NCBI GenBank assembly: GCA_028717685.1 | Contig: JAQUNI010000002.1 | Span: 71,903-135,902, forward strand | Source of the DNA: Patescibacteria group bacterium | Lineage (GTDB): Bacteria; Patescibacteriota; JAQUNI01 | Reading direction: 5' to 3' | DNA: 64,000 bases | Shown: piece after piece, positions 2,876 to 35,547 of the stretch | How the letters are laid out: the number at the start of each line of letters is the position of its first letter | Position numbering within the stretch: position 1 is the stretch's first letter | Position numbers and translations under genes: made by a program | The notes under the pieces: generated by a model | The model's input: the letters and a program-made list of their open reading frames with translations, nothing else | Database searches by the model: none | Told to the model about the DNA's origin: nothing

Positions 2876-5397
2876 TGAATGAAACTAATTTTTCCATCAT
2901 CTATCTTTTATGTGGGATGCTTTTTGTTCTATTGCTTATTTTGATTGCTTATTTTTTGATATTGAGCCAGCGTAAGAAATCCAAAGTGCCTAAGGCTTTC
3001 CAAACAACTTTGTTTTCAATTCGGGTGCCCAAAGAAATAGGCAAGGGGGAGAAAGAGGAAAAACAGGAAGAGAAGGAATTGATCGCGGTGGCGGAACAAG
3101 TGTTCGCCGGCTTCGCGCAACTCAATCGCATGAAAAAAGCCAAGCTTTGGGAGGAAAAAGATTTTGTTTCCTTGGAAATTGTGGCGCATCATAATGAAAC
3201 AAGTTTTTACGTTTGCTGTCCGAATAATCTGGTGGGGCTCGTGGAAAAACAAATCCAGGCGGCTTATCCCAGAGCCGAACTGGAAGAGATGAAGGAATAC
3301 AATTTTTATACTCCCGAGAGTGTGGTGCTCGCGACGAATATGGTTTTGGCGCGCGAAAACGTTTTTCCAATCAAGACTTACAAATACTTGGAAAATGATC
3401 CCCTTTCGGCTCTTGCTAATGCTTTAAGTAAGATGGGAGACCAAGAAGGAGGGGGTATAGAATTGATGATTCGTCCCGCTCCCAAAGGCTGGCAGACCAA
3501 GGGTCTTTCCGCGGCGCGCAAGATTCAGCAGGGCGTGAAAACCGCGGAGGCGGTGGGCGCGAAGGGCGTGGCAGGGAAGCTCGCACGCTTTGCCGGCGAG
3601 GTGGTGACGACAGCGGTTCAAGGAGCCGAGAAGAAGAAAAGAGCGCCGGAAGTGGAAGGGGAAAAACAGATTGAAGCGCCGCCTTCCTTAACCCCCCTGC
3701 AGCAGGAAACGGTAAAGCTTTTGGAAGAGAAAGCGAACAAGGTCGCTTTTGAAACCAATATTCGCTTGGCGGCCGCGAGTCCCACGCGCGAGCAAGCCGA
3801 GATTAAATTGTCCAATTTAATTAACGCTTTCCAGCAGTTTACTTACCCCGAATATAATAGTTTCAAGCCAGATAAGAATAAAAAATGGAGCGCCAAAAAA
3901 ACGATTACTAATTTTAACTTTCGTTTTTTTGATGAGGAAAAAGCGAGCATTTTAAATACCGAGGAGCTGGCGAGCATTTTTCATTTGCCTACGGCTTACA
4001 CCGAAACGCCAGAAGTGAAATGGCTTACCGCCAAGAAGGGCGAGGCGCCCGCCAATCTGCCCCAAGAAGGGATTGTGATTGGCAAGAATGTTTTTCGGGG
4101 CGTGGAGAGATTGGTGCGGATTCAAAGAGAAGATCGGCGCCGCCATTTGTATATTATTGGTCAGACCGGAACGGGCAAAACCACCTTGCTTAAAAATATG
4201 GTGGCGCAGGATTTGCAAAGCGGCGAGGGTGTTTGCGTGGTGGATCCCCATGGCGAACTCATTGAAGAATTATTAGGTCTTATGCCGAGAAACAGAGCAG
4301 AAGATGTCGTGGTTTTTGACCCGGGAGATATTGACCGCCCTTTAGGGCTTAATATGTTGGAGTACAACACGCCCGAACAGAAGGACTTTGTAGTTTCCGA
4401 GATGATTGCTATTTTCCATAAGCTTTTTCCGCCGGAGATTGTGGGTCCGATGTTTGAGCACAATATGCGCAATGTGATGCTGACCTTGATGGCGGATCCG
4501 GACAATCCAGGGACGATTACCGAGATTCCGCGGATGTTCACTGATCCGGAATATCAAAAATACAAGATCGCGAAAGTGACGGATACGGTGGTGCGCGATT
4601 TTTGGGAGAAGGAAATGGCAAAGACCACGGATTTTCATAAATCCGAAATGTTGGGCTATCTAATTTCCAAGATTGGGCAGTTTGTGGAGAATACGATGAT
4701 GCGCAATATTATCGGTCAGCAGCGCTCCGCCTTCAATCTCCGCGAGATTATGGACTCCGGCAAAATTTTACTCGTTAATCTGTCTAAAGGCAAAACCGGC
4801 GAGATTAATTCTTCGTTGCTCGGTCTCATCATTGTTTCTAAAATTCAGATGGCGGCAATGGGGCGGGTGGATATCCCCGAGGAAGAGCGGCGCGATTTTT
4901 ATCTTTACATTGATGAGTTCCAAAATTTCACCACGGATAGTATTATGACGATTTTGTCCGAAGCCCGCAAATACCGCCTGAATTTAACCCTCGCCAATCA
5001 ATATATCGCCCAGCTTCCGGAACAGATTCGCGACGCGGTTTTTGGCAATGTCGGCAGCCTTGCTTCTTTCCGGATCGGACCCAATGACGCCGAGTTTGTG
5101 GAAAAACAAACCGAGCCGGTTTTTTCTGCCCACGATTTAATCAATCTTGGCCAATTCCAAACCTATTTGAAACTTACTATAAATAATACGCCTTCCAAAG
5201 CCTTTAGTATGCAGACCTTGCCGCCCGAGCAAAAGCCTGACCGCGATTTGGCGCAAAGAATAAAAAATTTATCGCGCTTGAAATACGGCAAGGAGCGCGC
5301 GGAAGTGGAAGCGAAGACTATGGAGCAGCTTCAGCCGGAAATGGAACCAGGAAGTGGGGACCAGGAATCAGGAGGAATTATTAATTCTTCTGTTTAA
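2876..5397 (+). CDS. VirD4/TraG/TrwB-like coupling ATPase (T4SS DNA-transfer, AAA_10/DUF87-like) with N-terminal TM segment
   Basis: N-terminal hydrophobic helix, Walker A IIGQTGTGKTT, DPHGE, Walker B LYIDEFQNF. An upstream in-frame start at 2836 is possible. Confidence 0.6.
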
Positions 5398-5449: not shown

Positions 5450-6910
5450 TTGACTTTTTGTTTGAGTATCATCGGAGGCATATTTGTTGGTGGGTTAATA
5501 CAGGATTTGAGTGGAGATATAATATGTATTATATTGATTGGCTTGGCAGTTTTAGGAATAATTATCACCAGCGTTTTCTGGTCTGAAAGACTAGGGAAAA
5601 TAATAGGACTCGCGATCCTATTTTTTGTTCTGGGCGTATGGCGCTTTGAGATGAGCGCGCCCGAAATTAACGCCGCGCACATTGCTTATTATAATAATCA
5701 GGAAGAAATGAGCTTTTTGGGTATAGTCAATAAAGAGCCAGACGCGCGGGACATAAATACCAAGCTCACAGTGGAAGCCGTGGGCAATTATCAAGGCAAG
5801 ATACTGGTAACAGTTCTAAATTATCCCCAATACCATTACGGGGATAAACTAAAAATCACCTGCAAATTGCAAACCCCAAAAGAGGAAGAAGATTTTTCTT
5901 ACAAAAATTATTTAAGCCTTTTTGGCATTTATTCGGTTTGCTATCCAAAAGAGGGGGGAGTGCAATTACTGTCTTTCAATAACGGCAATTTTATTTACGC
6001 AGCCATTTTGAAACTAAAAGCAGAAACCAGCAATGTGATTAGCAAAATTTTGCCAGAACCGCAAGCATCATTGTTAGCCGGATTAACCTTGGGCGTGCGA
6101 GGTAATTTTCCGCAAAAAGTTTTGGATGATTTTTCCCGCGTGGGTATAACCCATATCATCGCTGTTTCCGGTTTTAACATCACCTTAATTTCTACGATAG
6201 TGATGTCTATCCTTTTAACCTTAGGTTTATGGCGGAAGCATGCTTTTTATTTCGCGGTTTTGTTTTTGATTTTGTATGTCATCTTGGTCGGCGCGCCCGC
6301 TTCTGCGGTAAGGGCGGGGGTAATGGGATTTCTGTTTTTATTGGCGCAACGTTTGGGTCGCCTGAATTATTCCGCCAACGCGATTGTTTTTGCCGCGGCG
6401 GCGATGCTTGCCATTAATCCCAGGCTATTGCCTTATGATGTCGGCTTCCAGCTTTCCTTCGCGGCGATTCTGGGACTTGTTTATGTTTATCCAATTTTTG
6501 TAAAATGGTTCGCGAAATTACCAGAACTTGGCTTGATTAAAAATATCGTCTTGCTTACCCTTGCCGCCCAAGTCGCCACCTTGCCTTTATTGATGTTTCA
6601 TTTCAGCAAGCTTTCATTAATTTCTCCGATTGCTAACATTTTGGTTGTTCCCTTTATTCCCTTAATTACAATTTTAGGTTTCTGCGGCATTATTTTCGGT
6701 TTTGTTTATTGGCTATTTGGCTGGATATTTAGTTGGCTCATCTGGCCGTTTCTAACCTTGATTCTTAAAGTCAGTGATTATCTAGCTCAAATTCCTTATA
6801 GCTTTTTAGAATTAAAGATGCAATGGTGGATGGTGGTCATTTATTATTTAGTTTTAATAGGATTTTTGGTTTGGTATAATAAGATTGGAATTAGGAAGCA
6901 GGAATTATGA
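5450..6910 (+). CDS. comEC: ComEC/Rec2 N-terminal part (DUF4131 + competence channel domain)
   Basis: Polytopic membrane protein; ITHIIAVSGFNITLI is the conserved ComEC competence-domain motif. Ends with TGA. Confidence 0.7.
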   Translation: MTFCLSIIGGIFVGGLIQDLSGDIICIILIGLAVLGIIITSVFWSERLGKIIGLAILFFVLGVWRFEMSAPEINAAHIAYYNNQEEMSFLGIVNKEPDARDINTKLTVEAVGNYQGKILVTVLNYPQYHYGDKLKITCKLQTPKEEEDFSYKNYLSLFGIYSVCYPKEGGVQLLSFNNGNFIYAAILKLKAETSNVISKILPEPQASLLAGLTLGVRGNFPQKVLDDFSRVGITHIIAVSGFNITLISTIVMSILLTLGLWRKHAFYFAVLFLILYVILVGAPASAVRAGVMGFLFLLAQRLGRLNYSANAIVFAAAAMLAINPRLLPYDVGFQLSFAAILGLVYVYPIFVKWFAKLPELGLIKNIVLLTLAAQVATLPLLMFHFSKLSLISPIANILVVPFIPLITILGFCGIIFGFVYWLFGWIFSWLIWPFLTLILKVSDYLAQIPYSFLELKMQWWMVVIYYLVLIGFLVWYNKIGIRKQEL

Positions 6911-29284: not shown

Positions 29285-31135
29285 TTAAGGCGTCAGAGGC
29301 ACTAGATCGGGTATGCCGTCGCCATTTTGATCACCTTGAGGCGTCAGCGGCACAACATCGGGCAAACCGTCGCCATTCTGATCGTTGCTGGTTGCGGGAT
29401 TTTGATTTCCTTCCGGGGTCAAAGGCACGAGGTCGGGCAAGCCATCGCCGTCCTGGTCGTTGGAGGAGGAAGTGTTATCGCCCGGTTTCCACTCGGAAGT
29501 TAGCACAATGCGCAAGGGTTCTTGTTTATCGCAACTTAAACCCTTAAGATTGCCCTCCGCGTCATAAAGGTTTTTCAACTCCGCCGGCAGATTGTATTGT
29601 TGCGCCATTTCCCGCACTTTTTTGGTTGCTTCCTTGTAAGCGGCCATTCCTTCTTCTGAAGGCTCGAAGGAAATAACGGCTCCATTTTGACCATTATCTC
29701 GGATAAGTTTACCGCTGCCCACCATTTGGATTCCAGGCGCGATCGTTTCCGTGGATTCGGGTGTATAGGTCTCTGACCAGTGCCAGTTGCTATCAGGCGA
29801 AATGTGTAAAGCTTTCGCTGTTTGTTCTGGTCCAGCAAGGCTGGATTGATAATTGCCCGCTCGTGCTGCCCAAATTGGAAAGCTTTCACCCTCGCGAATC
29901 CCCGCTAAAGAAAAGGTGGTCAACATCAGATCCGTGGATTTTCCCTTAACATTATGCATTGGGATGTCAAGTAAGTAATAAGAATCAATCGTACGCGACT
30001 CTTTATGTATCAGGGCATCTAGGTCGGTATCAGTGGTGTAATACTGATAGACGCGCCAATCCGTGCGCCAGGCAGGTTCGCCAACGGCGGCATCGTCCGT
30101 ATGAAGTCCTTCCGAAAGAACCATTGTTTTTGACTGCGCGCTTTCCTGAAAAAATCCGCCGGCTAAGTTCATATTAAAAGTGCAGCCATAAGAGTCTGAT
30201 TGGCGGATGATATATTTTCCTGAAGTCTTTTCCTCTTCGCAATCGTTCGTGAACGCCTTTTCAGTCTTCAGCGCCAAGTCTGGGTAAGGAAAAAATTGCA
30301 TCATCTGCCAAGCCGTAACCAAATCCGTCAAAGCGTCCGGCGTTTCGTTCGGGCAATAATCTTGAATTACTTTATTGGTTAATTCTTCGGCAATTTGGGA
30401 AGCGCGCTCCCAGCTGGCATCGTTATATTGCTTGGCTTTGCCTGTGGCATCATCAACCGCGATTTTGCTCATCTCCGCCTCGAATTCTTGATACATACTT
30501 TGATTTTCAGGATCCTTAAAAGTGAATTCGAACCCATTGGGCGTTCCGCCGCCGACATAACTCGCGTGCGTTAATACGGTTTGATAGACGTTGTTCCCGA
30601 GATTTATCGTCGGCAGCCACTCCCATTCTTTTTTCACAGTATCCCAGTAACCCAAGGCAAAATCCTTTTTTGGCGCTTCATTTAAAGTGATTTTAAAAAT
30701 GAGTCCGCGCTTGAAATCTTTTTCACTAATTGAAATTTCAAATAAACCCCCGATCACCCCTTGGGGCCAGATGGATTCCGCGGCTTCCTTGATTGTGATT
30801 TTCGGTTTTTTTGTAAAAGCCGCTTGGGGAACAATAAGCTCCGCCTTGCCGCCCGCGGCGCTAGCCTGAAGAATATCGGGACGATCCGCCGCGCTTTGTT
30901 CACTAGCGCCCCGTTCCAAGAGGGCGGAAATCATAATCCCCGGATTAGGCAAGAAGAAAAGGAAGGAAGAGGCAACCAGCCAAAGCACAAGGAGCACTCC
31001 GGGTAAACAAAATAAAGCCACCAAGAGAATAATTAATTTTTTGTGGGATTTTTTGGGTGGAGCGGGGGAGGGGGTGTTTGCCACTGGCGGGGCAGGCGGA
31101 TTAGGCGGGACAGGGGGTAAGTTTTGTGTTTCCAT
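29285..31135 (-). CDS. membrane-anchored surface protein with Pro-rich N-terminus and C-terminal thrombospondin-type-3-like Ca-binding repeats
   Basis: PPVPPNPPAPP, a TM helix, and three NDQDGDGLPDLVPLTP-type repeats at the C-terminus. Confidence 0.5.
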   Translation of the reverse strand: METQNLPPVPPNPPAPPVANTPSPAPPKKSHKKLIILLVALFCLPGVLLVLWLVASSFLFFLPNPGIMISALLERGASEQSAADRPDILQASAAGGKAELIVPQAAFTKKPKITIKEAAESIWPQGVIGGLFEISISEKDFKRGLIFKITLNEAPKKDFALGYWDTVKKEWEWLPTINLGNNVYQTVLTHASYVGGGTPNGFEFTFKDPENQSMYQEFEAEMSKIAVDDATGKAKQYNDASWERASQIAEELTNKVIQDYCPNETPDALTDLVTAWQMMQFFPYPDLALKTEKAFTNDCEEEKTSGKYIIRQSDSYGCTFNMNLAGGFFQESAQSKTMVLSEGLHTDDAAVGEPAWRTDWRVYQYYTTDTDLDALIHKESRTIDSYYLLDIPMHNVKGKSTDLMLTTFSLAGIREGESFPIWAARAGNYQSSLAGPEQTAKALHISPDSNWHWSETYTPESTETIAPGIQMVGSGKLIRDNGQNGAVISFEPSEEGMAAYKEATKKVREMAQQYNLPAELKNLYDAEGNLKGLSCDKQEPLRIVLTSEWKPGDNTSSSNDQDGDGLPDLVPLTPEGNQNPATSNDQNGDGLPDVVPLTPQGDQNGDGIPDLVPLTP

Positions 31136-31454
31136 GTTTTTGTGTTTATTTGCTAATTTTATTTTTGTGAAAAGTGCTAAAATTTTTGGATTCTTTTAGA
31201 TTTTATGAATCTTACTTGAACTATTTTCAAGTCCCGCAGTTGAATGCAGGATAAATTCCAGAGCGCGTCAGCTTTGCTGGCACGCCGTTTAAATTCTTAA
31301 TTAAAGAATATCACAATTCGTAAACAATTGCATCTTTTAAAGACTGATTTTTGAAATCTGTCTTTTCTCCTATTTTTTGCCTTCTATTTTAAGCCGGTGG
31401 CATTTTTAGAGATTTCGGAGAGCTTTTGATGAGAATAGATTTTTTTAGTAATAA

Positions 31455-31490
31455 AATAAAAAGGTGAGGGCTGAAAAACCTTCACCTTCG
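31455..31490 (-). terminator. rho-independent terminator of the RT gene
   Basis: Minus strand AAGGTGAAGGTTTTTCAGCCCTCACCTTTTTATTTT, preceded by a second hairpin. Confidence 0.6.
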
Positions 31491-31528
31491 CGTTCTTAAA
31501 CTTACACGGGTTTGACCTGCGTAAGTTT

Positions 31529-32791
31529 TTATTTCTCTTCGGTTTGAATCTCGCGAAGCAACTTATAATAAGGTCCCGTAATTTGTGCTGGTAGATCATT
31601 GTAATTAAAATCAAACGACCCATTGGTGCCAAGCTTTCCATAGATGGGCTTCAATGAAGCAATAAACCCCTTTACTTTGGGTCGCAAAGATAGATCGGAA
31701 ATCGCCCGGTAGATGATTCCCCGCCAGCGGCGCACTGTCTTTTTCGGCAGAACGATTTTACTATTGCCTTCCTTATCTTTGATAATCCGCAGACCGGTAA
31801 TAAGTGGCGCTTCGTGAATAATACCGCGGTGCGACACCTTTTTGGCATTGGGTTTAAAACCGTATTTTTCAATAGTCTCGTAAAATTTTCCTTGAACATC
31901 TTCAGGAATTGGCTTTTGCGCTGACACCACAATATTATCAACATACATTCCCGCTTCAAATCGGAATTTGTCTTGACGTTTATTGTCAGCGAGGAAAACA
32001 AAGAATGGGGACGGACACAGCGAACAAAGTTCGCTAAAAAATCCGCTTTCTGTTAAATAGATATAAAACAGAAAAGGCGCGGTGGGCGTGCCTTGCGGCA
32101 AAATATAGTTCCAGGTTGTCAACTTGATAATGAGCTCGGTGAGCGCCTTGGCAATTTTTGCCTTACCGGCCAGAAGCCACCGGTCATCGTCTTCAAACAG
32201 CCAGCCGTCCAATATACTTGAAGCCCTGTAAAAGAAGGAAAAACTTAAATGTTTCTTTGCGTCTTCAAGGTCCCGAGCATAGGAAGATATTTCATCCTCT
32301 TCTTTTATAAGCTTCATTCTTTCTGTAAGTGCTCGGCAATGGCTAACATCAAGCTCGTATGCTTCTAGTTCGCTGATTATCCGGTTGAAAACAATCTCTT
32401 CTAAATTCCGGACGCTCGTTGACGGAAAGGCATCTGCCAAATCTAACTGCCAAAACCATTTAGCGTCTTTGTGGCGATGAGCATGCCATACGTAAGACGT
32501 TAATTCTCCTCCCGGATACAAGCCATATAGACCATCGTGAAGCATATTCCACATTTTGTGAAGAAATCTTCGGAGGATTTTTTTCTGTATCGCTTTCAGT
32601 TCTTCAGATGGAATAAAAAGAGTGCGAAAACCGTCTGATTTCTTCGGAACTTCAAGTACACGATAATCCGGCGTGAGCAATGATATGCGGCAGACATCTA
32701 CCTTTAATATACTAGCTAAAACCGCTTCAGCCTTTGGCAAGCCAAATTGCTGGAGCATTTCGGCTTCTCTTTCTTCTCGCGATTTTCGCAC
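31529..32791 (-). CDS. stand-alone reverse transcriptase, retron/Abi lineage, with non-canonical YVDN in place of YADD
   Basis: RT domains: FRTLFIPS (1), WFWQLDLADAFPS (3), LPQGTPTAPF (4, QGxxxP type), MYVDNIVV (5), PLITGLRII (VTG-like thumb). GTG start at 32791 with AAGGAGG RBS; the track uses the upstream TTG at 32827. Confidence 0.75.
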   Translation of the reverse strand: MRKSREEREAEMLQQFGLPKAEAVLASILKVDVCRISLLTPDYRVLEVPKKSDGFRTLFIPSEELKAIQKKILRRFLHKMWNMLHDGLYGLYPGGELTSYVWHAHRHKDAKWFWQLDLADAFPSTSVRNLEEIVFNRIISELEAYELDVSHCRALTERMKLIKEEDEISSYARDLEDAKKHLSFSFFYRASSILDGWLFEDDDRWLLAGKAKIAKALTELIIKLTTWNYILPQGTPTAPFLFYIYLTESGFFSELCSLCPSPFFVFLADNKRQDKFRFEAGMYVDNIVVSAQKPIPEDVQGKFYETIEKYGFKPNAKKVSHRGIIHEAPLITGLRIIKDKEGNSKIVLPKKTVRRWRGIIYRAISDLSLRPKVKGFIASLKPIYGKLGTNGSFDFNYNDLPAQITGPYYKLLREIQTEEK

Positions 32792-33170
32792 TTTACTTCC
32801 CTCCTTTTTGAAATTGGGAACGAACAAAAGTGTGGGGACTCATTTTTGCACAGCTTCTTGATTTCCGCTGAAAATAGCGCAATTTTACAACCAGCCGTCA
32901 GATACTGACGACCGCCGTACTTTGGTTGGAGTTAACCGCCCAGCTTGTACGATTTATTCAAGCCGCGTTTGACCCCACTGGTTTCAGCATATCGCTATAA
33001 AGATAATTTGACAAGTAGAAATAAAAAAGGCGGCATATGAAGCGCGTCCCCTGAAGTTTTGGATGGATAATATTATAATTCCCGAAGTAAAGTGATCTGG
33101 TTTGTGGAAAGTTTGGTCAAAGGCAAATGGTTTTATTGGTTTAATTTTAAGAGTTTTTTGTAATTTTAGT

Positions 33171-33695
33171 TTAATCGGTTTTTTCATTCTCTAACTTTTC
33201 TGGCCAAGGATAAGGCATTGACTCTGAAATTGGTATTTGCTTTATTTTCCCTTCTTCTTCCATAATAACCACAACATCTAGTCCTGAGCGCAAGCTGCTT
33301 TCGTAAATCAGTTGCTTGCAGATATGGCAATTTGGTCCGGTAATCGCCACAATATCCTTTTCGCCGTGAATAGCGGCGTGAGCCAACGCCGTTGCTTCCG
33401 AATGCATAGTTAAAGTTTCCGTGTCTGAAAGATAAGAAACGCCAGTATAGATATTTCCTTTTTTTGTCATCAAGGCAACGGCATACCCATCGCCACTTTT
33501 GGGATAAGTATTTTTCAACGCTTCATTGCTTAACCTTAAAAGATTTTTACATTCTTCATCGGTTAGCTCGTAGTATGTTTTGTTGCCTAAAGTTTTTGCT
33601 TTCATAATTGTTTTGCGGCGCTTGTCCGCAGGGAGGAGAGCATAAGTGGGGTGCGGAACAAAGCGGAACAGAGTAGGTTCAGAATGAATCCACAC
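33171..33695 (-). CDS. cytidine/deoxycytidine deaminase family protein (CDA fold)
   Basis: HSEATAL (HxE) and PNCHICKQ (PCxxC) zinc ligands, collinear with tetrameric Cdd over ~125 aa. GTG start 1 nt after the PP2C stop; an internal ATG at 33605 is possible. Confidence 0.65.
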   Translation of the reverse strand: MWIHSEPTLFRFVPHPTYALLPADKRRKTIMKAKTLGNKTYYELTDEECKNLLRLSNEALKNTYPKSGDGYAVALMTKKGNIYTGVSYLSDTETLTMHSEATALAHAAIHGEKDIVAITGPNCHICKQLIYESSLRSGLDVVVIMEEEGKIKQIPISESMPYPWPEKLENEKTD

Positions 33696-34756: not shown

Positions 34757-35314
34757 CTAAAATTTTAACCTTTTTCTTAACTCCGTAGACGACAAAAGTT
34801 TTTTCGACCATTCTTTGTAATGTCTAGTATCTTCAATTAGTCCACCATGATAAACCTGCATGTAAACAAGATTGTTCTCGTAGAAGATTTTTTCCTCGCC
34901 TTCTACAAATCCTCTTTTTTTTGTAAATCTGTTTCTATACAAAAACTTATTTTCTCGGAAACCGTCTAATCCTCGGTGAGTTGTTTTTCCTGCTCCTGCA
35001 CGCAATGCCTTTTTCAGAAAATCAAAGACCACTTTTGGCCCTAATTTTCTACCTGCGCCTATAAGGATTCCATAGTAGTTAACTCCGTATATAGGATGCT
35101 TCCGATAGAAAGTTATTGTTTGCCCCATATTCAACTCTTCTCCGCTATAGCGGTCAATCACTACATAAGGTCCTTTCCGGTAGGTTATAACCTTAAACCA
35201 AGGCAAAAATGGGTCCAAAAATTTCTGTGGGCTTCCGCCGTAACCTTTGGTTTTATCTTCTCTCAAAGATATTTCTCGTAATTTTTTTAAATGATTTTGT
35301 AGGTTTTTACTCAT
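34757..35314 (-). CDS. hypothetical protein (possible toxin partner of upstream HTH)
   Basis: 186 aa, basic; ATGAGTAA start/stop overlap with the HTH gene. No recognisable domain. Confidence 0.4.
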   Translation of the reverse strand: MSKNLQNHLKKLREISLREDKTKGYGGSPQKFLDPFLPWFKVITYRKGPYVVIDRYSGEELNMGQTITFYRKHPIYGVNYYGILIGAGRKLGPKVVFDFLKKALRAGAGKTTHRGLDGFRENKFLYRNRFTKKRGFVEGEEKIFYENNLVYMQVYHGGLIEDTRHYKEWSKKLLSSTELRKRLKF

Positions 35315-35459
35315 ATTTAAGTAATTCCTTTGGTTCAACACCAAGTGCTTTCGTCATTTTTTTAATAGTGAGTAAGGAAGGGTTTCTCTTACCTCGTTCT
35401 AGTCTGCTTATATATATAACTTTGGTGGACGCTAAGCGTTCTTGCCATGTACTACACAT
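35307..35459 (-). CDS. XRE-family helix-turn-helix fragment (50 aa, lacks helix 1)
   Basis: QERLASTKVIYISRLERGKRNPSLLTIKKMTKALGVEPKELL matches XRE helices 2-3. The ORF starts 14 nt from the tRNA 3' end; the track extension over the tRNA is spurious. Confidence 0.45.
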   Translation of the reverse strand: MCSTWQERLASTKVIYISRLERGKRNPSLLTIKKMTKALGVEPKELLKYE

Positions 35460-35473
35460 ACAGCACTCTTTAG

Positions 35474-35547
35474 TCGGGGATGTGGGACTTGAACCCACGG
35501 CCTCGCGCACCCCATGCGCGCGCGCTAGCCAACTGCGCCAATCCCCG
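35474..35547 (-). tRNA. tRNA-Pro (anticodon GGG)
   Basis: 74-nt cloverleaf: acceptor CGGGGAT/ATCCCCG, D-arm GCGC-AGTTGGCTA-GCGC, anticodon stem CGCGC/GCGCG with loop ATGGGGT, T-arm GTGGG-TTCAAGT-CCCAC, discriminator A, no encoded CCA. Confidence 0.85.

Follow-up and report, generated by a model that had tools for sequence, protein, structure and literature searches.

A retron-lineage reverse transcriptase with an altered motif C and a conserved upstream RNA, found mainly in Patescibacteria

In a stretch of 64,000 nucleotides from a Patescibacteria group bacterium (assembly GCA_028717685.1, contig JAQUNI010000002.1, positions 71,903 to 135,902 of the forward strand; hereafter the window), we describe a reverse transcriptase (RT) of the retron lineage that is preceded on its own strand by a conserved structured RNA. 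Our preferred reading, to which we give a probability of roughly 0.55, is that the two make up a self-contained, effector-less, retron-derived module of an RT and a noncoding RNA (ncRNA), in which the RT copies part of the RNA. Confidence is high in the RT-ncRNA module as described and moderate, by analogy with retrons, in the proposal that the RT reverse-transcribes its RNA. Retrons are seen as defence systems of three parts, similar to toxin-antitoxin systems and centred on a canonical YxDD RT, and the module in the window looks like an undescribed offshoot of these bacterial systems; literature searches for YVDN/YIDN and for retrons in Patescibacteria turned up no account of this RT family, nor of any RT with YVDN or YIDN. 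What is new is the combination: a retron-lineage RT-ncRNA pair that has no effector, the YxD[N/G/S] motif throughout the clade, a new family of RNA, and occurrence chiefly in Patescibacteria. The gene and the motif on which much of the argument turns are located as follows.

31529 to 32791, minus strand: RT of the retron lineage, 420 amino acids (Pfam RVT_1, PADLOC, Protein Data Bank profile search, AlphaFold2 model with Foldseek).
31934 to 31945, minus strand: motif C, YVDN (TAT GTT GAT AAT), standing where RTs usually have YxDD.

A preliminary description of the window, made from its letters alone, had assigned the RT to a 'retron/Abi' lineage. The retron half of that assignment holds and the Abi half does not, all of the best sequence and fold matches being retron RTs. 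In PADLOC, the 25 matches listed, of 35 in all, comprise retron RT models together with one Cas-associated RT model and include no UG/DRT model; RT_VI (1.5e-22) and RT_III-A (4e-22) rank first, followed by RT_X and RT_II-A, with retron RT models scoring between 1e-15 and 1e-22 and RT_Ec107-like 1.7e-13. A Protein Data Bank search with a profile of 36 family members placed retrons Ec67 and Ec86 at the top (1e-26 to 3e-27), followed by Ec78 and Ec83, the four spanning 1e-16 to 3e-27, with group II and G2L RTs well behind and no match at E<0.01 to DRT2, DRT9 or diversity-generating retroelement (DGR) RTs. The AlphaFold2 model of the window RT (mean predicted local distance difference test score 91.8) gave the same picture in Foldseek: Eco2, Eco7 and Ec86 were best, the top 17 matches were all retron RTs, the Ec86 match had a TM-score of 0.69-0.72 (normalised to the target), and retrons scored about 5e-12 against about 1e-6, five to six orders of magnitude worse, for DRT2, DRT9 and DGR RTs.

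The motifs point the same way. Retron RTs are marked by NAxxH, in which His is the most conserved residue, and by VTG, in which Gly is (Mestre et al. 2020, PMC7736814). YVDN, QGTPTAP, HAHRH and LITGL, all named in the preliminary description, are indeed present in the window RT. Region X, between RT2 and RT3, reads HAHRH, with H119 invariant in the family and H115 in place of N in at least 90% of its members; what had been called degenerate thus retains the invariant His of NAxxH. Region Y, in RT7, reads LITGL, with T344 at least 90% conserved and G345 invariant across the family. The RT is of the retron lineage, and not of the Abi/UG, DGR or group II lineages, because the PADLOC, Protein Data Bank and Foldseek rankings agree and because H119 and G345 are invariant. 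Its NCBIfam score for retron_St85_RT (72 bits) falls short of the 235-bit cutoff, which leaves it outside the named retron families.

It is very improbable that the gene is instead a fragment of a group II intron, a DGR or a UG/Abi (DRT-type) system. The RVT_1 domain is common to all of these, the window RT has a sub-threshold match to group_II_RT_mat (15.9 bits against a cutoff of 300), and DRT2 and DRT9 also pair an RT with an upstream ncRNA. Against this, Pfam finds RVT_1 alone, with no domain X, maturase or endonuclease domain, and Rfam finds no intron RNA, in line with the earlier judgement that the gene is not a group II RT. The earlier exclusion of a DGR likewise stands, motif B being QGTPTAP (the QGxPTAP type) rather than the DGR type and template repeat/variable repeat-type repeats not being found within 20 kb; between 22000 and 42000, the only repeats of at least 35 nt are tandem repeats inside the gene of a 616-aa protein. 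DRT2, DRT9 and DGR folds fall far below those of retrons, as given above. The exclusion of UG/Abi rests on the PADLOC models and the DRT2/DRT9 fold scores, the sequences of UG38, a candidate phyla radiation (CPR) group of UG/Abi RTs, not having been compared themselves.

The catalytic centre departs from that of retrons. In the profile alignment to retron Ec67, vYvDnfviS lies opposite sYaDDitiS, so that Asn replaces the second catalytic Asp and the window RT lacks the canonical YxDD of retrons. The YVDN reading itself was borne out by the codons (GAT AAT) and, beyond the window, by its relatives. An exhaustive hidden Markov model search of 1.84 billion cluster representatives yielded 388 clusters at E<=1e-30, and among the best 183 proteins the closest 70 or so nearly all carry Y-x-D-[N/G/S], while those farther away carry YADD. 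A neighbour-joining tree of the best 172 relatives, clustered at 50% identity, contains a clade of 87 representatives, of which 84 carry N, G or S at the second motif-C position; the 85 relatives outside it have D in 75, E in 7 and N in 3. On this tree the loss of the second Asp is a conserved character of the clade and not a one-off lesion. A group of distant relatives (P0137, P0151, P0159, P0162, P0166, P0170, P0171, P0175, P0177 and P0182) carries RY[VT]DE in motif C, with Glu for the second Asp, and is another non-canonical, retron-like RT clade.

The rest of the active site is kept. R68, D129, F134, Q245, G246, Y295, D297, K330 and G345 are invariant in the family, and F134, within D-x-x-D-A-F, occupies the steric-gate position of HIV-1 RT (DVGDAY), which implies selection of deoxynucleoside triphosphates (dNTPs). 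The ratio of nonsynonymous to synonymous substitution rates (dN/dS) of the RT, from the window and its homologue in a Doudnabacteria locus (L002), is 0.24, and by these comparisons the catalytic residues are under purifying selection. With dN/dS at 0.24 and every remaining catalytic or dNTP-binding residue invariant, the window RT is probably an active but altered polymerase. There is precedent for such a centre: Asn occurs naturally at the second motif-C position of active polymerases, in the GDN of Mononegavirales and in Birnaviridae, and mutation of the second motif-C Asp usually lowers activity or shifts metal preference rather than abolishing activity (PMC4634563).

An opposing view would make the RT a catalytically dead pseudo-enzyme, the RNA-binding part of a structural or regulatory ribonucleoprotein. 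One of three catalytic carboxylates is indeed lost clade-wide, and the Gly or Ser found in some members is unable to bind metal. Pseudo-enzymes, however, usually lose the residues needed only for catalysis or dNTP handling, and here the fingers Arg, the motif A Asp, the steric-gate Phe, the QG of motif B, the first Asp of motif C and the Lys of motif D are all invariant. As polymerases with a D-N motif C are active (PMC4634563), we regard a dead enzyme as unlikely.

The second component of the module is the RNA, the elements of which lie as follows.

32821 to 32981, minus strand: ncRNA of 161 nt, comprising P1 (the closing helix), P2, a variable P3 with a conserved loop, P4, a variable P5 and a U-rich tail UUUUGUUCG (covariance model R1).
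32971 to 32978, minus strand: 5' strand of P1, GUGGGGUC (a1-like), pairing with 32832-32839.
32832 to 32839, minus strand: 3' strand of P1, GUCCCCAC (a2-like), about 40 nt upstream of the RT start codon.
32960 to 32967, minus strand: 5' strand of P2, CGCGGCUU (segment X), pairing with 32849-32856.
32849 to 32856, minus strand: 3' strand of P2, AAGCUGUG (segment Z), the partner of segment X.
32924 to 32937, minus strand: conserved loop GGUUAACUCCAACC (family consensus GUUAryyCyAaCC), around which the P3 stem shifts register or is remodelled.
32893 to 32913, minus strand: P4 hairpin GGUCGUCAG-UAU-CUGACGGCU, the most conserved element, containing CGTCAGTATCTGACG.

An ncRNA upstream of the RT had been predicted from the window alone, and the family bears this out. 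Model R1 (26 pairs) matches the window once in its 64 kb, at 128.8 bits (E 2e-24), and it has one match directly 5' of the RT and on the same strand in the listed family loci with enough upstream sequence, a set of about 19 distinct sequences whose RT identity to the window reaches down to about 30%. RT and RNA co-occur strictly. Alignments recovered the core motif just upstream of the RT in the window, L001 and L002, in L003 and L004, and in L009 and L011, and the motif recurs in loci from metagenomes as well as from long contigs. Between the window and L002, identity is 89.6% in the RNA, 84% at third codon positions of the RT and 75% in the downstream intergenic sequence. A permissive Rfam scan of the leader (E<=10) gave no match, and the gathering-threshold scan of the whole window found a tRNA-Pro only.

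Single-sequence folds of 20 family leaders converge on one recurrent architecture. P1 (GUGGGGYC/GRCCCCAC; 6-10 bp across the family) is followed by an A-rich linker and by P2 (CGYGGCUU/AAGCCRCG); P4 (GGyyGyCAG-NNN-CUGrCrrCU) is followed by GGUAGAAA, by a variable hairpin P5 and, optionally, by P6; and a conserved U-rich tail UUGUUCUUUU stands after the closing helix, ahead of the Shine-Dalgarno sequence. RNAalifold on a MAFFT alignment recovered P1, P2 and P4. The local hairpin CGTCAGTATCTGACG (32910-32896), which the preliminary description had given as an example, proved to be the apex of P4, the most conserved helix of a family-wide RNA, and the core of that RNA.

Covariation supports these helices. 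In the R1-guided alignment 95.5% of the cells are paired, against 24-55% when the partners are slid by 1-3 columns, and compensatory changes on both sides occur in 15 of the 26 pairs; none of 500 shuffles reaches the observed values. Because that alignment is fitted to the model, the count was redone on a sequence-only MAFFT alignment, where 95.4% are paired, against 28-50% in the slid controls, and 5 pairs are compensatory. P1 changes on both sides in 6 of its 8 pairs (GUGGGG/CCCCAC, AUGGGA/UCCCAU and GGAGCC/GGCUCC; also AUGGGACC/GGUCCCAU), P2 appears as CGUGGCUU/AAGCCACG, CGUAGCUU/AAGCUACG, CCGGGCUA/UAGCUUGG and AAGGGCGA/UCGCCCUU, and P4 is 98.8% paired, with 4 compensatory pairs (UCGUCAG/CUGACGG, CGGGCAG/CUGCCCG and UUGGCAG/CUGCCAG). 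The alignments show three helices to covary and the predicted RNA structure to be conserved. A tertiary pairing of the loop CAACC with GGUAG/GGUUG after P4 was also considered; it is matched at 5 of 5 positions in the window and has no convincing covariation elsewhere, and is not claimed here.

Segment X (GGCUUG) has an alternative partner, the nearby CAAGCUG (about 32941-32947, segment Y), with which it forms a local hairpin instead of pairing with the distant AAGCC. Both Y and Z track X in diverged members (GCUAG with CUAGU and UAGCC). The two conformers differ little in energy in the window clade (-51.5 against -51.0 kcal/mol), and their alternation there may be a co-transcriptional folding intermediate or a switch. 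A bistable, riboswitch-like switch common to the family was rejected: the folds are near-equal in the window clade only, and in most members X:Z is the more stable by 4-10 kcal/mol.

These folds bear on a possible, though clearly less probable, account in which the RNA is purely a cis-regulatory 5' leader, serving autoregulation of the RT or acting as an attenuator or switch through X:Y and X:Z. The RNA begins a few nucleotides after a promoter-like site and ends 5-70 nt before the start codon in most loci, the U-rich tail UUGUUCUUUU after the closing helix is conserved, and the X:Y and X:Z pairings are mutually exclusive, with partners that covary with X and near-equal energies in the window clade. 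Yet X:Z prevails by the margin given above in most members, and X:Y is missing from the more distant ones. Retron-lineage RTs typically use the upstream RNA as template, and the layout here matches theirs; five helices in 160 nt, kept down to about 30% RT identity, seem excessive for autoregulation alone. A regulatory role would in any case be compatible with the RNA also being a template.

Two loci, L009 (1950-2060) and L011 (about 4380-4480), carry a second promoter-like TTTACA...TATAAAT with a P4-like hairpin GGUUGGCAGAAACUGCCAGCU, about 250-300 nt upstream of the full RNA and with a weak R1 match in L009 at 1992-2014; this extra copy has the appearance of a partial tandem duplication of the RNA gene. 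In L001 (337-1602), the RT is 86% identical to that of the window and has two in-frame stops at the equivalents of L29 and E76; the RNA upstream is intact, with an additional 13-nt hairpin CGGCCGUAAGGCC in its P3 region. The L001 RT may be a pseudogene with its RNA retained, or the stops may be sequencing errors.

Under the preferred reading, that of a self-contained RT-ncRNA module, a promoter at about 33014-32986 would drive a single transcript, the first 160 nt or so of which would fold into a multi-helix RNA closed by an 8-bp helix, the remainder encoding the RT. The RT would bind this upstream RNA, probably recognising the invariant P4 hairpin and the junction through the ITG region of its thumb, and would make a short DNA from part of it, in the way that retron RTs use msr-msd. 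The polymerase would be active, and its metal or active-site chemistry altered because N, G or S replaces the second Asp of YxDD clade-wide. As no effector is encoded alongside, the output would be the ribonucleoprotein or the complementary DNA (cDNA) itself, or else a product acting together with factors whose genes lie elsewhere, in a defensive or a cellular role. The order of promoter, a1/a2-like closed RNA and RT on one strand is the retron layout.

Several points weigh against this reading. By mutagenesis, the second Asp of YxDD is needed in several RTs (D186 of HIV-1), so that activity of the window RT is not to be assumed. An invariant unpaired G next to the a1-like strand was not found in the family folds: the linker after P1 is A-rich and 1-6 nt long before P2 begins, and the first conserved G (in AAACG) is predicted to be paired. 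Nor is a long, sequence-variable msd hairpin apparent in the RNA; the longest hairpin, P4, has only 9-10 bp and is the most conserved in sequence, and P5 and P6 are short or absent. An RNA in the 5' untranslated region whose 3' strand lies some 40 nt short of the start codon fits a regulatory leader equally well. Canonical retrons, moreover, are three-part systems with an effector, and an effector was not found here. Because YxDD and an effector are lacking, and neither a conserved unpaired G nor a long variable msd hairpin was found, we do not call the module a retron.

The 343 bp upstream of the RT had been described as a single coding-free leader. The conserved RNA within it is real, and the single coding-free unit is not: the leader is a composite of a gene remnant, a promoter-like site and the 161-nt structured RNA. 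The flanking features of the RT and the RNA are these.

33080 to 33187, minus strand: remnant of an HhH-GPD-like gene, its first 36 codons, with 34 of 36 residues (94%) identical to the N-terminus in L002.
32986 to 33014, minus strand: promoter-like TTGTCA-17 nt-TATGCT from a sigma-70 consensus scan, ending 5 nt before the RNA 5' end.
32800 to 32806, minus strand: Shine-Dalgarno sequence AAGGAGG, read from the sequence, 8 nt ahead of the GTG and kept in L001 and L002.
31450 to 31528, minus strand: two terminator hairpins 3' of the RT stop codon, the second followed by the U-run UUUUUAUUUU.

The sole open reading frame (ORF) in the leader (67 aa, 32984-33187) matches the HhH-GPD-like protein, which is intact in L002 (326 aa), over its first 36 residues. 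A small leader ORF of the kind found in type VI retrons was accordingly dismissed, the 67-aa frame being the remnant of a deleted gene. Since only 36 HhH-GPD-like codons remain, the window has undergone a deletion of about 2 kb relative to L002; lost between the deaminase-like gene and the RT cassette are the HhH-GPD-like gene, an 84-aa ORF and a DUF711-like gene. The promoter is a consensus match and transcription from it is predicted; homologous loci have TTGACA/TTTACA and TATAAT-like hexamers equally far from the RNA. In L002, the closest complete relative, the entire cassette of RNA, RT and terminator lies between two copies of an 86-nt direct repeat that are 79% identical (4698-4783 and 6461-6546); in the window the downstream copy lies at about 31320-31385 and the 3' half alone of the upstream copy at about 33042-33086, both on the minus strand. 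The repeat could be a duplicated promoter or untranslated region, or the footprint of a cassette insertion or recombination.

The RT gene is genuine, as had been claimed. Its frame in the ORF list runs from 31529 to 32827 on the minus strand (432 aa from a TTG), and its likely start is the GTG at 32791-32789, yielding 420 aa; a homologue, P0001, is 87% identical, likewise 420 aa long, and starts at the equivalent position. The gene's own AAGGAGG-GTG start could be confirmed (32806-32800, with the GTG 8 nt on), and so could its strong terminator, whose two hairpins fold with a minimum free energy of -28.6 kcal/mol and a z-score of -5.27. Between RT motifs 3 and 4, about 100 aa form a helical insertion (residues 139-237 or so; window about 32120-32415, minus strand) that is modelled with high confidence; it varies in length, is missing from P0032, P0034 and P0036, and has no counterpart in the Ec67 alignment or in the retron RT fold matches. 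Longer family members, scanned with Pfam for fused domains as a clue to function, contained RVT_1 alone.

The RT had been called stand-alone, with no effector adjacent, and the neighbourhoods uphold both statements. When ORFs of at least 40 aa within 3 kb were clustered over 19 loci, none occurred in more than two, and an all-against-all BLAST of flanking ORFs found nothing common beyond the closely related pair of the window and L002. There is no conserved neighbour gene; the neighbours are varied and many are housekeeping genes, among them Ile-, Leu- and Arg-tRNA synthetases, PolB, ThiI, dCTP deaminase, MurJ, RecO and LepA. The deaminase-like and PP2C-like genes near the window RT are bystanders, as no neighbour is common to more than two of the 19 loci, and on this comparison they were rejected as partners.

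That the region is a defence island in which the deaminase-like, PP2C-like, or 616- or 410-aa proteins serve as effectors of the RT is accordingly hard to credit. These genes do adjoin the RT in the window, and the PP2C-deaminase pair and the 616- and 410-aa genes lie near it in L002. However, three genes separate the deaminase and the RT in L002, none of these genes accompanies the RT in the other 17 loci, and PADLOC gave no match for the window neighbours, the deaminase-like and PP2C-like genes included. Nor was evidence found for the island-like block next to tRNA-Pro that had been suggested: GC content is unremarkable across the region, the genes for PP2C, the deaminase, the RT and the 616- and 410-aa proteins are syntenic in the Doudnabacteria metagenome-assembled genome (MAG), and no integrase-like ORF was noted in the ORF list between 27000 and 38000, where no search aimed at integrases was made. 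A phage origin was rejected, the RNA pattern being absent from IMG/VR, which holds just two distant RT relatives.

Other features of the surroundings may be recorded here. An ORF on the minus strand (35307-35510) starts inside the tRNA-Pro gene (35473-35547, minus strand), and its similarity to an XRE-type HTH_3 domain is confined to the C-terminal half of the profile (positions 25-55 of 55); it looks like a truncated helix-turn-helix (HTH) gene abutting the tRNA 3' end, possibly the scar of an old integration. A full-length homologue of it lies 290 nt downstream of the RT in L133, probably by coincidence. Downstream of the RT, the 616-aa protein matches no family and carries a hydrophobic segment at its N-terminus, and three tandem 48-nt units at 29285-29458, inside the ORF at 29285-31135 (minus strand), encode a C-terminal repeat NGDGLPDLVPLTP.

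The distribution of the family is mainly in Patescibacteria, and its members carry the database name 'RNA-directed DNA polymerase' only. A few RTs of the family or its sister clade fall in other bins, namely L016 (a Nanoarchaeia MAG, DPANN), L003 (an Omnitrophota MAG) and L001 and L012 ('Gammaproteobacteria'); these could be mis-binned short contigs or a real spread to other ultra-small organisms. The sister clade (L012-L015 and L017), whose RTs are about 25-29% identical to that of the window, has canonical YADD or FADD and NAxxH, in most cases with a VTG/ITG triplet, and its neighbours are again housekeeping genes, for example flanking EF-P. In L012-L015 a P4-like hairpin GGCGGUCAG-NNN-CUGGCCGCC stands upstream of the RT. 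As this hairpin precedes RTs with a canonical YADD, the pairing of RT and RNA predates the loss of the Asp.

In CPR bacteria, DGRs were thought to account for most of the RTs (PMC8632793). The present clade is sizeable, with about 87 clusters; it has retained an RT and a covarying 160-nt RNA, with no effector and the catalytic Asp replaced. Its structured RNA is absent from Rfam, and the pair is a rare candidate for a functional RT ribonucleoprotein in reduced CPR genomes. An active enzyme would extend the range of chemistry known at RT active sites and provide biotechnology with a compact RT-RNA pair; a product that needs no effector would be a new operating mode in the retron lineage. A bolder and quite tentative proposal is that these are Patescibacteria-centred RT-RNA particles co-opted for an effector-free function, perhaps other than defence, with a two-carboxylate YxDN/G site whose demands for metal or substrate would be unusual; they might produce a specific small DNA for the cell or serve as a self-sufficient sensor. 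Were this so, it would be the first case of a redesigned catalytic centre in a retron-lineage RT, and also of a stand-alone ribonucleoprotein of that lineage maintained among housekeeping genes in minimal genomes.

Comparison with known systems places the module nearest to retrons. DRT2 and DRT9 (UG/Abi class 2) consist of an RT and an upstream ncRNA without a separate effector, and their cDNA is the functional output. The window module resembles them in this two-component make-up, and differs in the lineage of its RT (fold-search E about 1e-6) and, from DRT9, in that no long U-tract like the DRT9 template was noted in its RNA. The repeated AAGC segments Y and Z lie a variable 86-103 nt apart, not consistently a multiple of 3, and therefore lend no support to a DRT2-like rolling circle with an endless ORF, a judgement that concerns the spacing alone and not stop-free frames.

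Type VI retrons (Retron-Vpa2 hyRNA), in which no multicopy single-stranded DNA (msDNA) was detected at rest, have an RNA that encodes a small toxic protein, together with an HTH antitoxin (bioRxiv 10.1101/2025.10.22.683967). The window module is like them in that RT_VI is its best single model (1.5e-22) and in having a repeat-closed RNA contiguous with a downstream coding sequence on one predicted transcript. It is unlike them in that this coding sequence is the RT itself and that a toxic protein and an HTH antitoxin are not conserved in the family. The Retron-Eco5 (Ec107) branch, type III-A, comprises 'orphan' retrons with an RT and an ncRNA and no associated effector gene (PMC7736814). The module shares with these the lack of an effector, and RT_III-A models are among its best PADLOC matches (4e-22); this likeness is at the level of the retron superfamily only, well below family cutoffs. 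Ec107 itself has a canonical YxDD and classical msDNA.

From retrons such as Eco1/Ec86 (type II-A) and Eco2/Ec67, the module differs in having no effector gene, in YxD[N/G/S], in an RNA that lies outside Rfam and in which neither a long variable msd hairpin nor a branching G is evident, in its Patescibacteria hosts, and in the 100-aa helical insertion between RT3 and RT4 present in many family members. With these same retrons it shares the closest RT sequence and fold, the His of region X and the TG of region Y, and a structured ncRNA upstream on the same strand, with a1/a2-like terminal repeats and a single promoter before the RNA.

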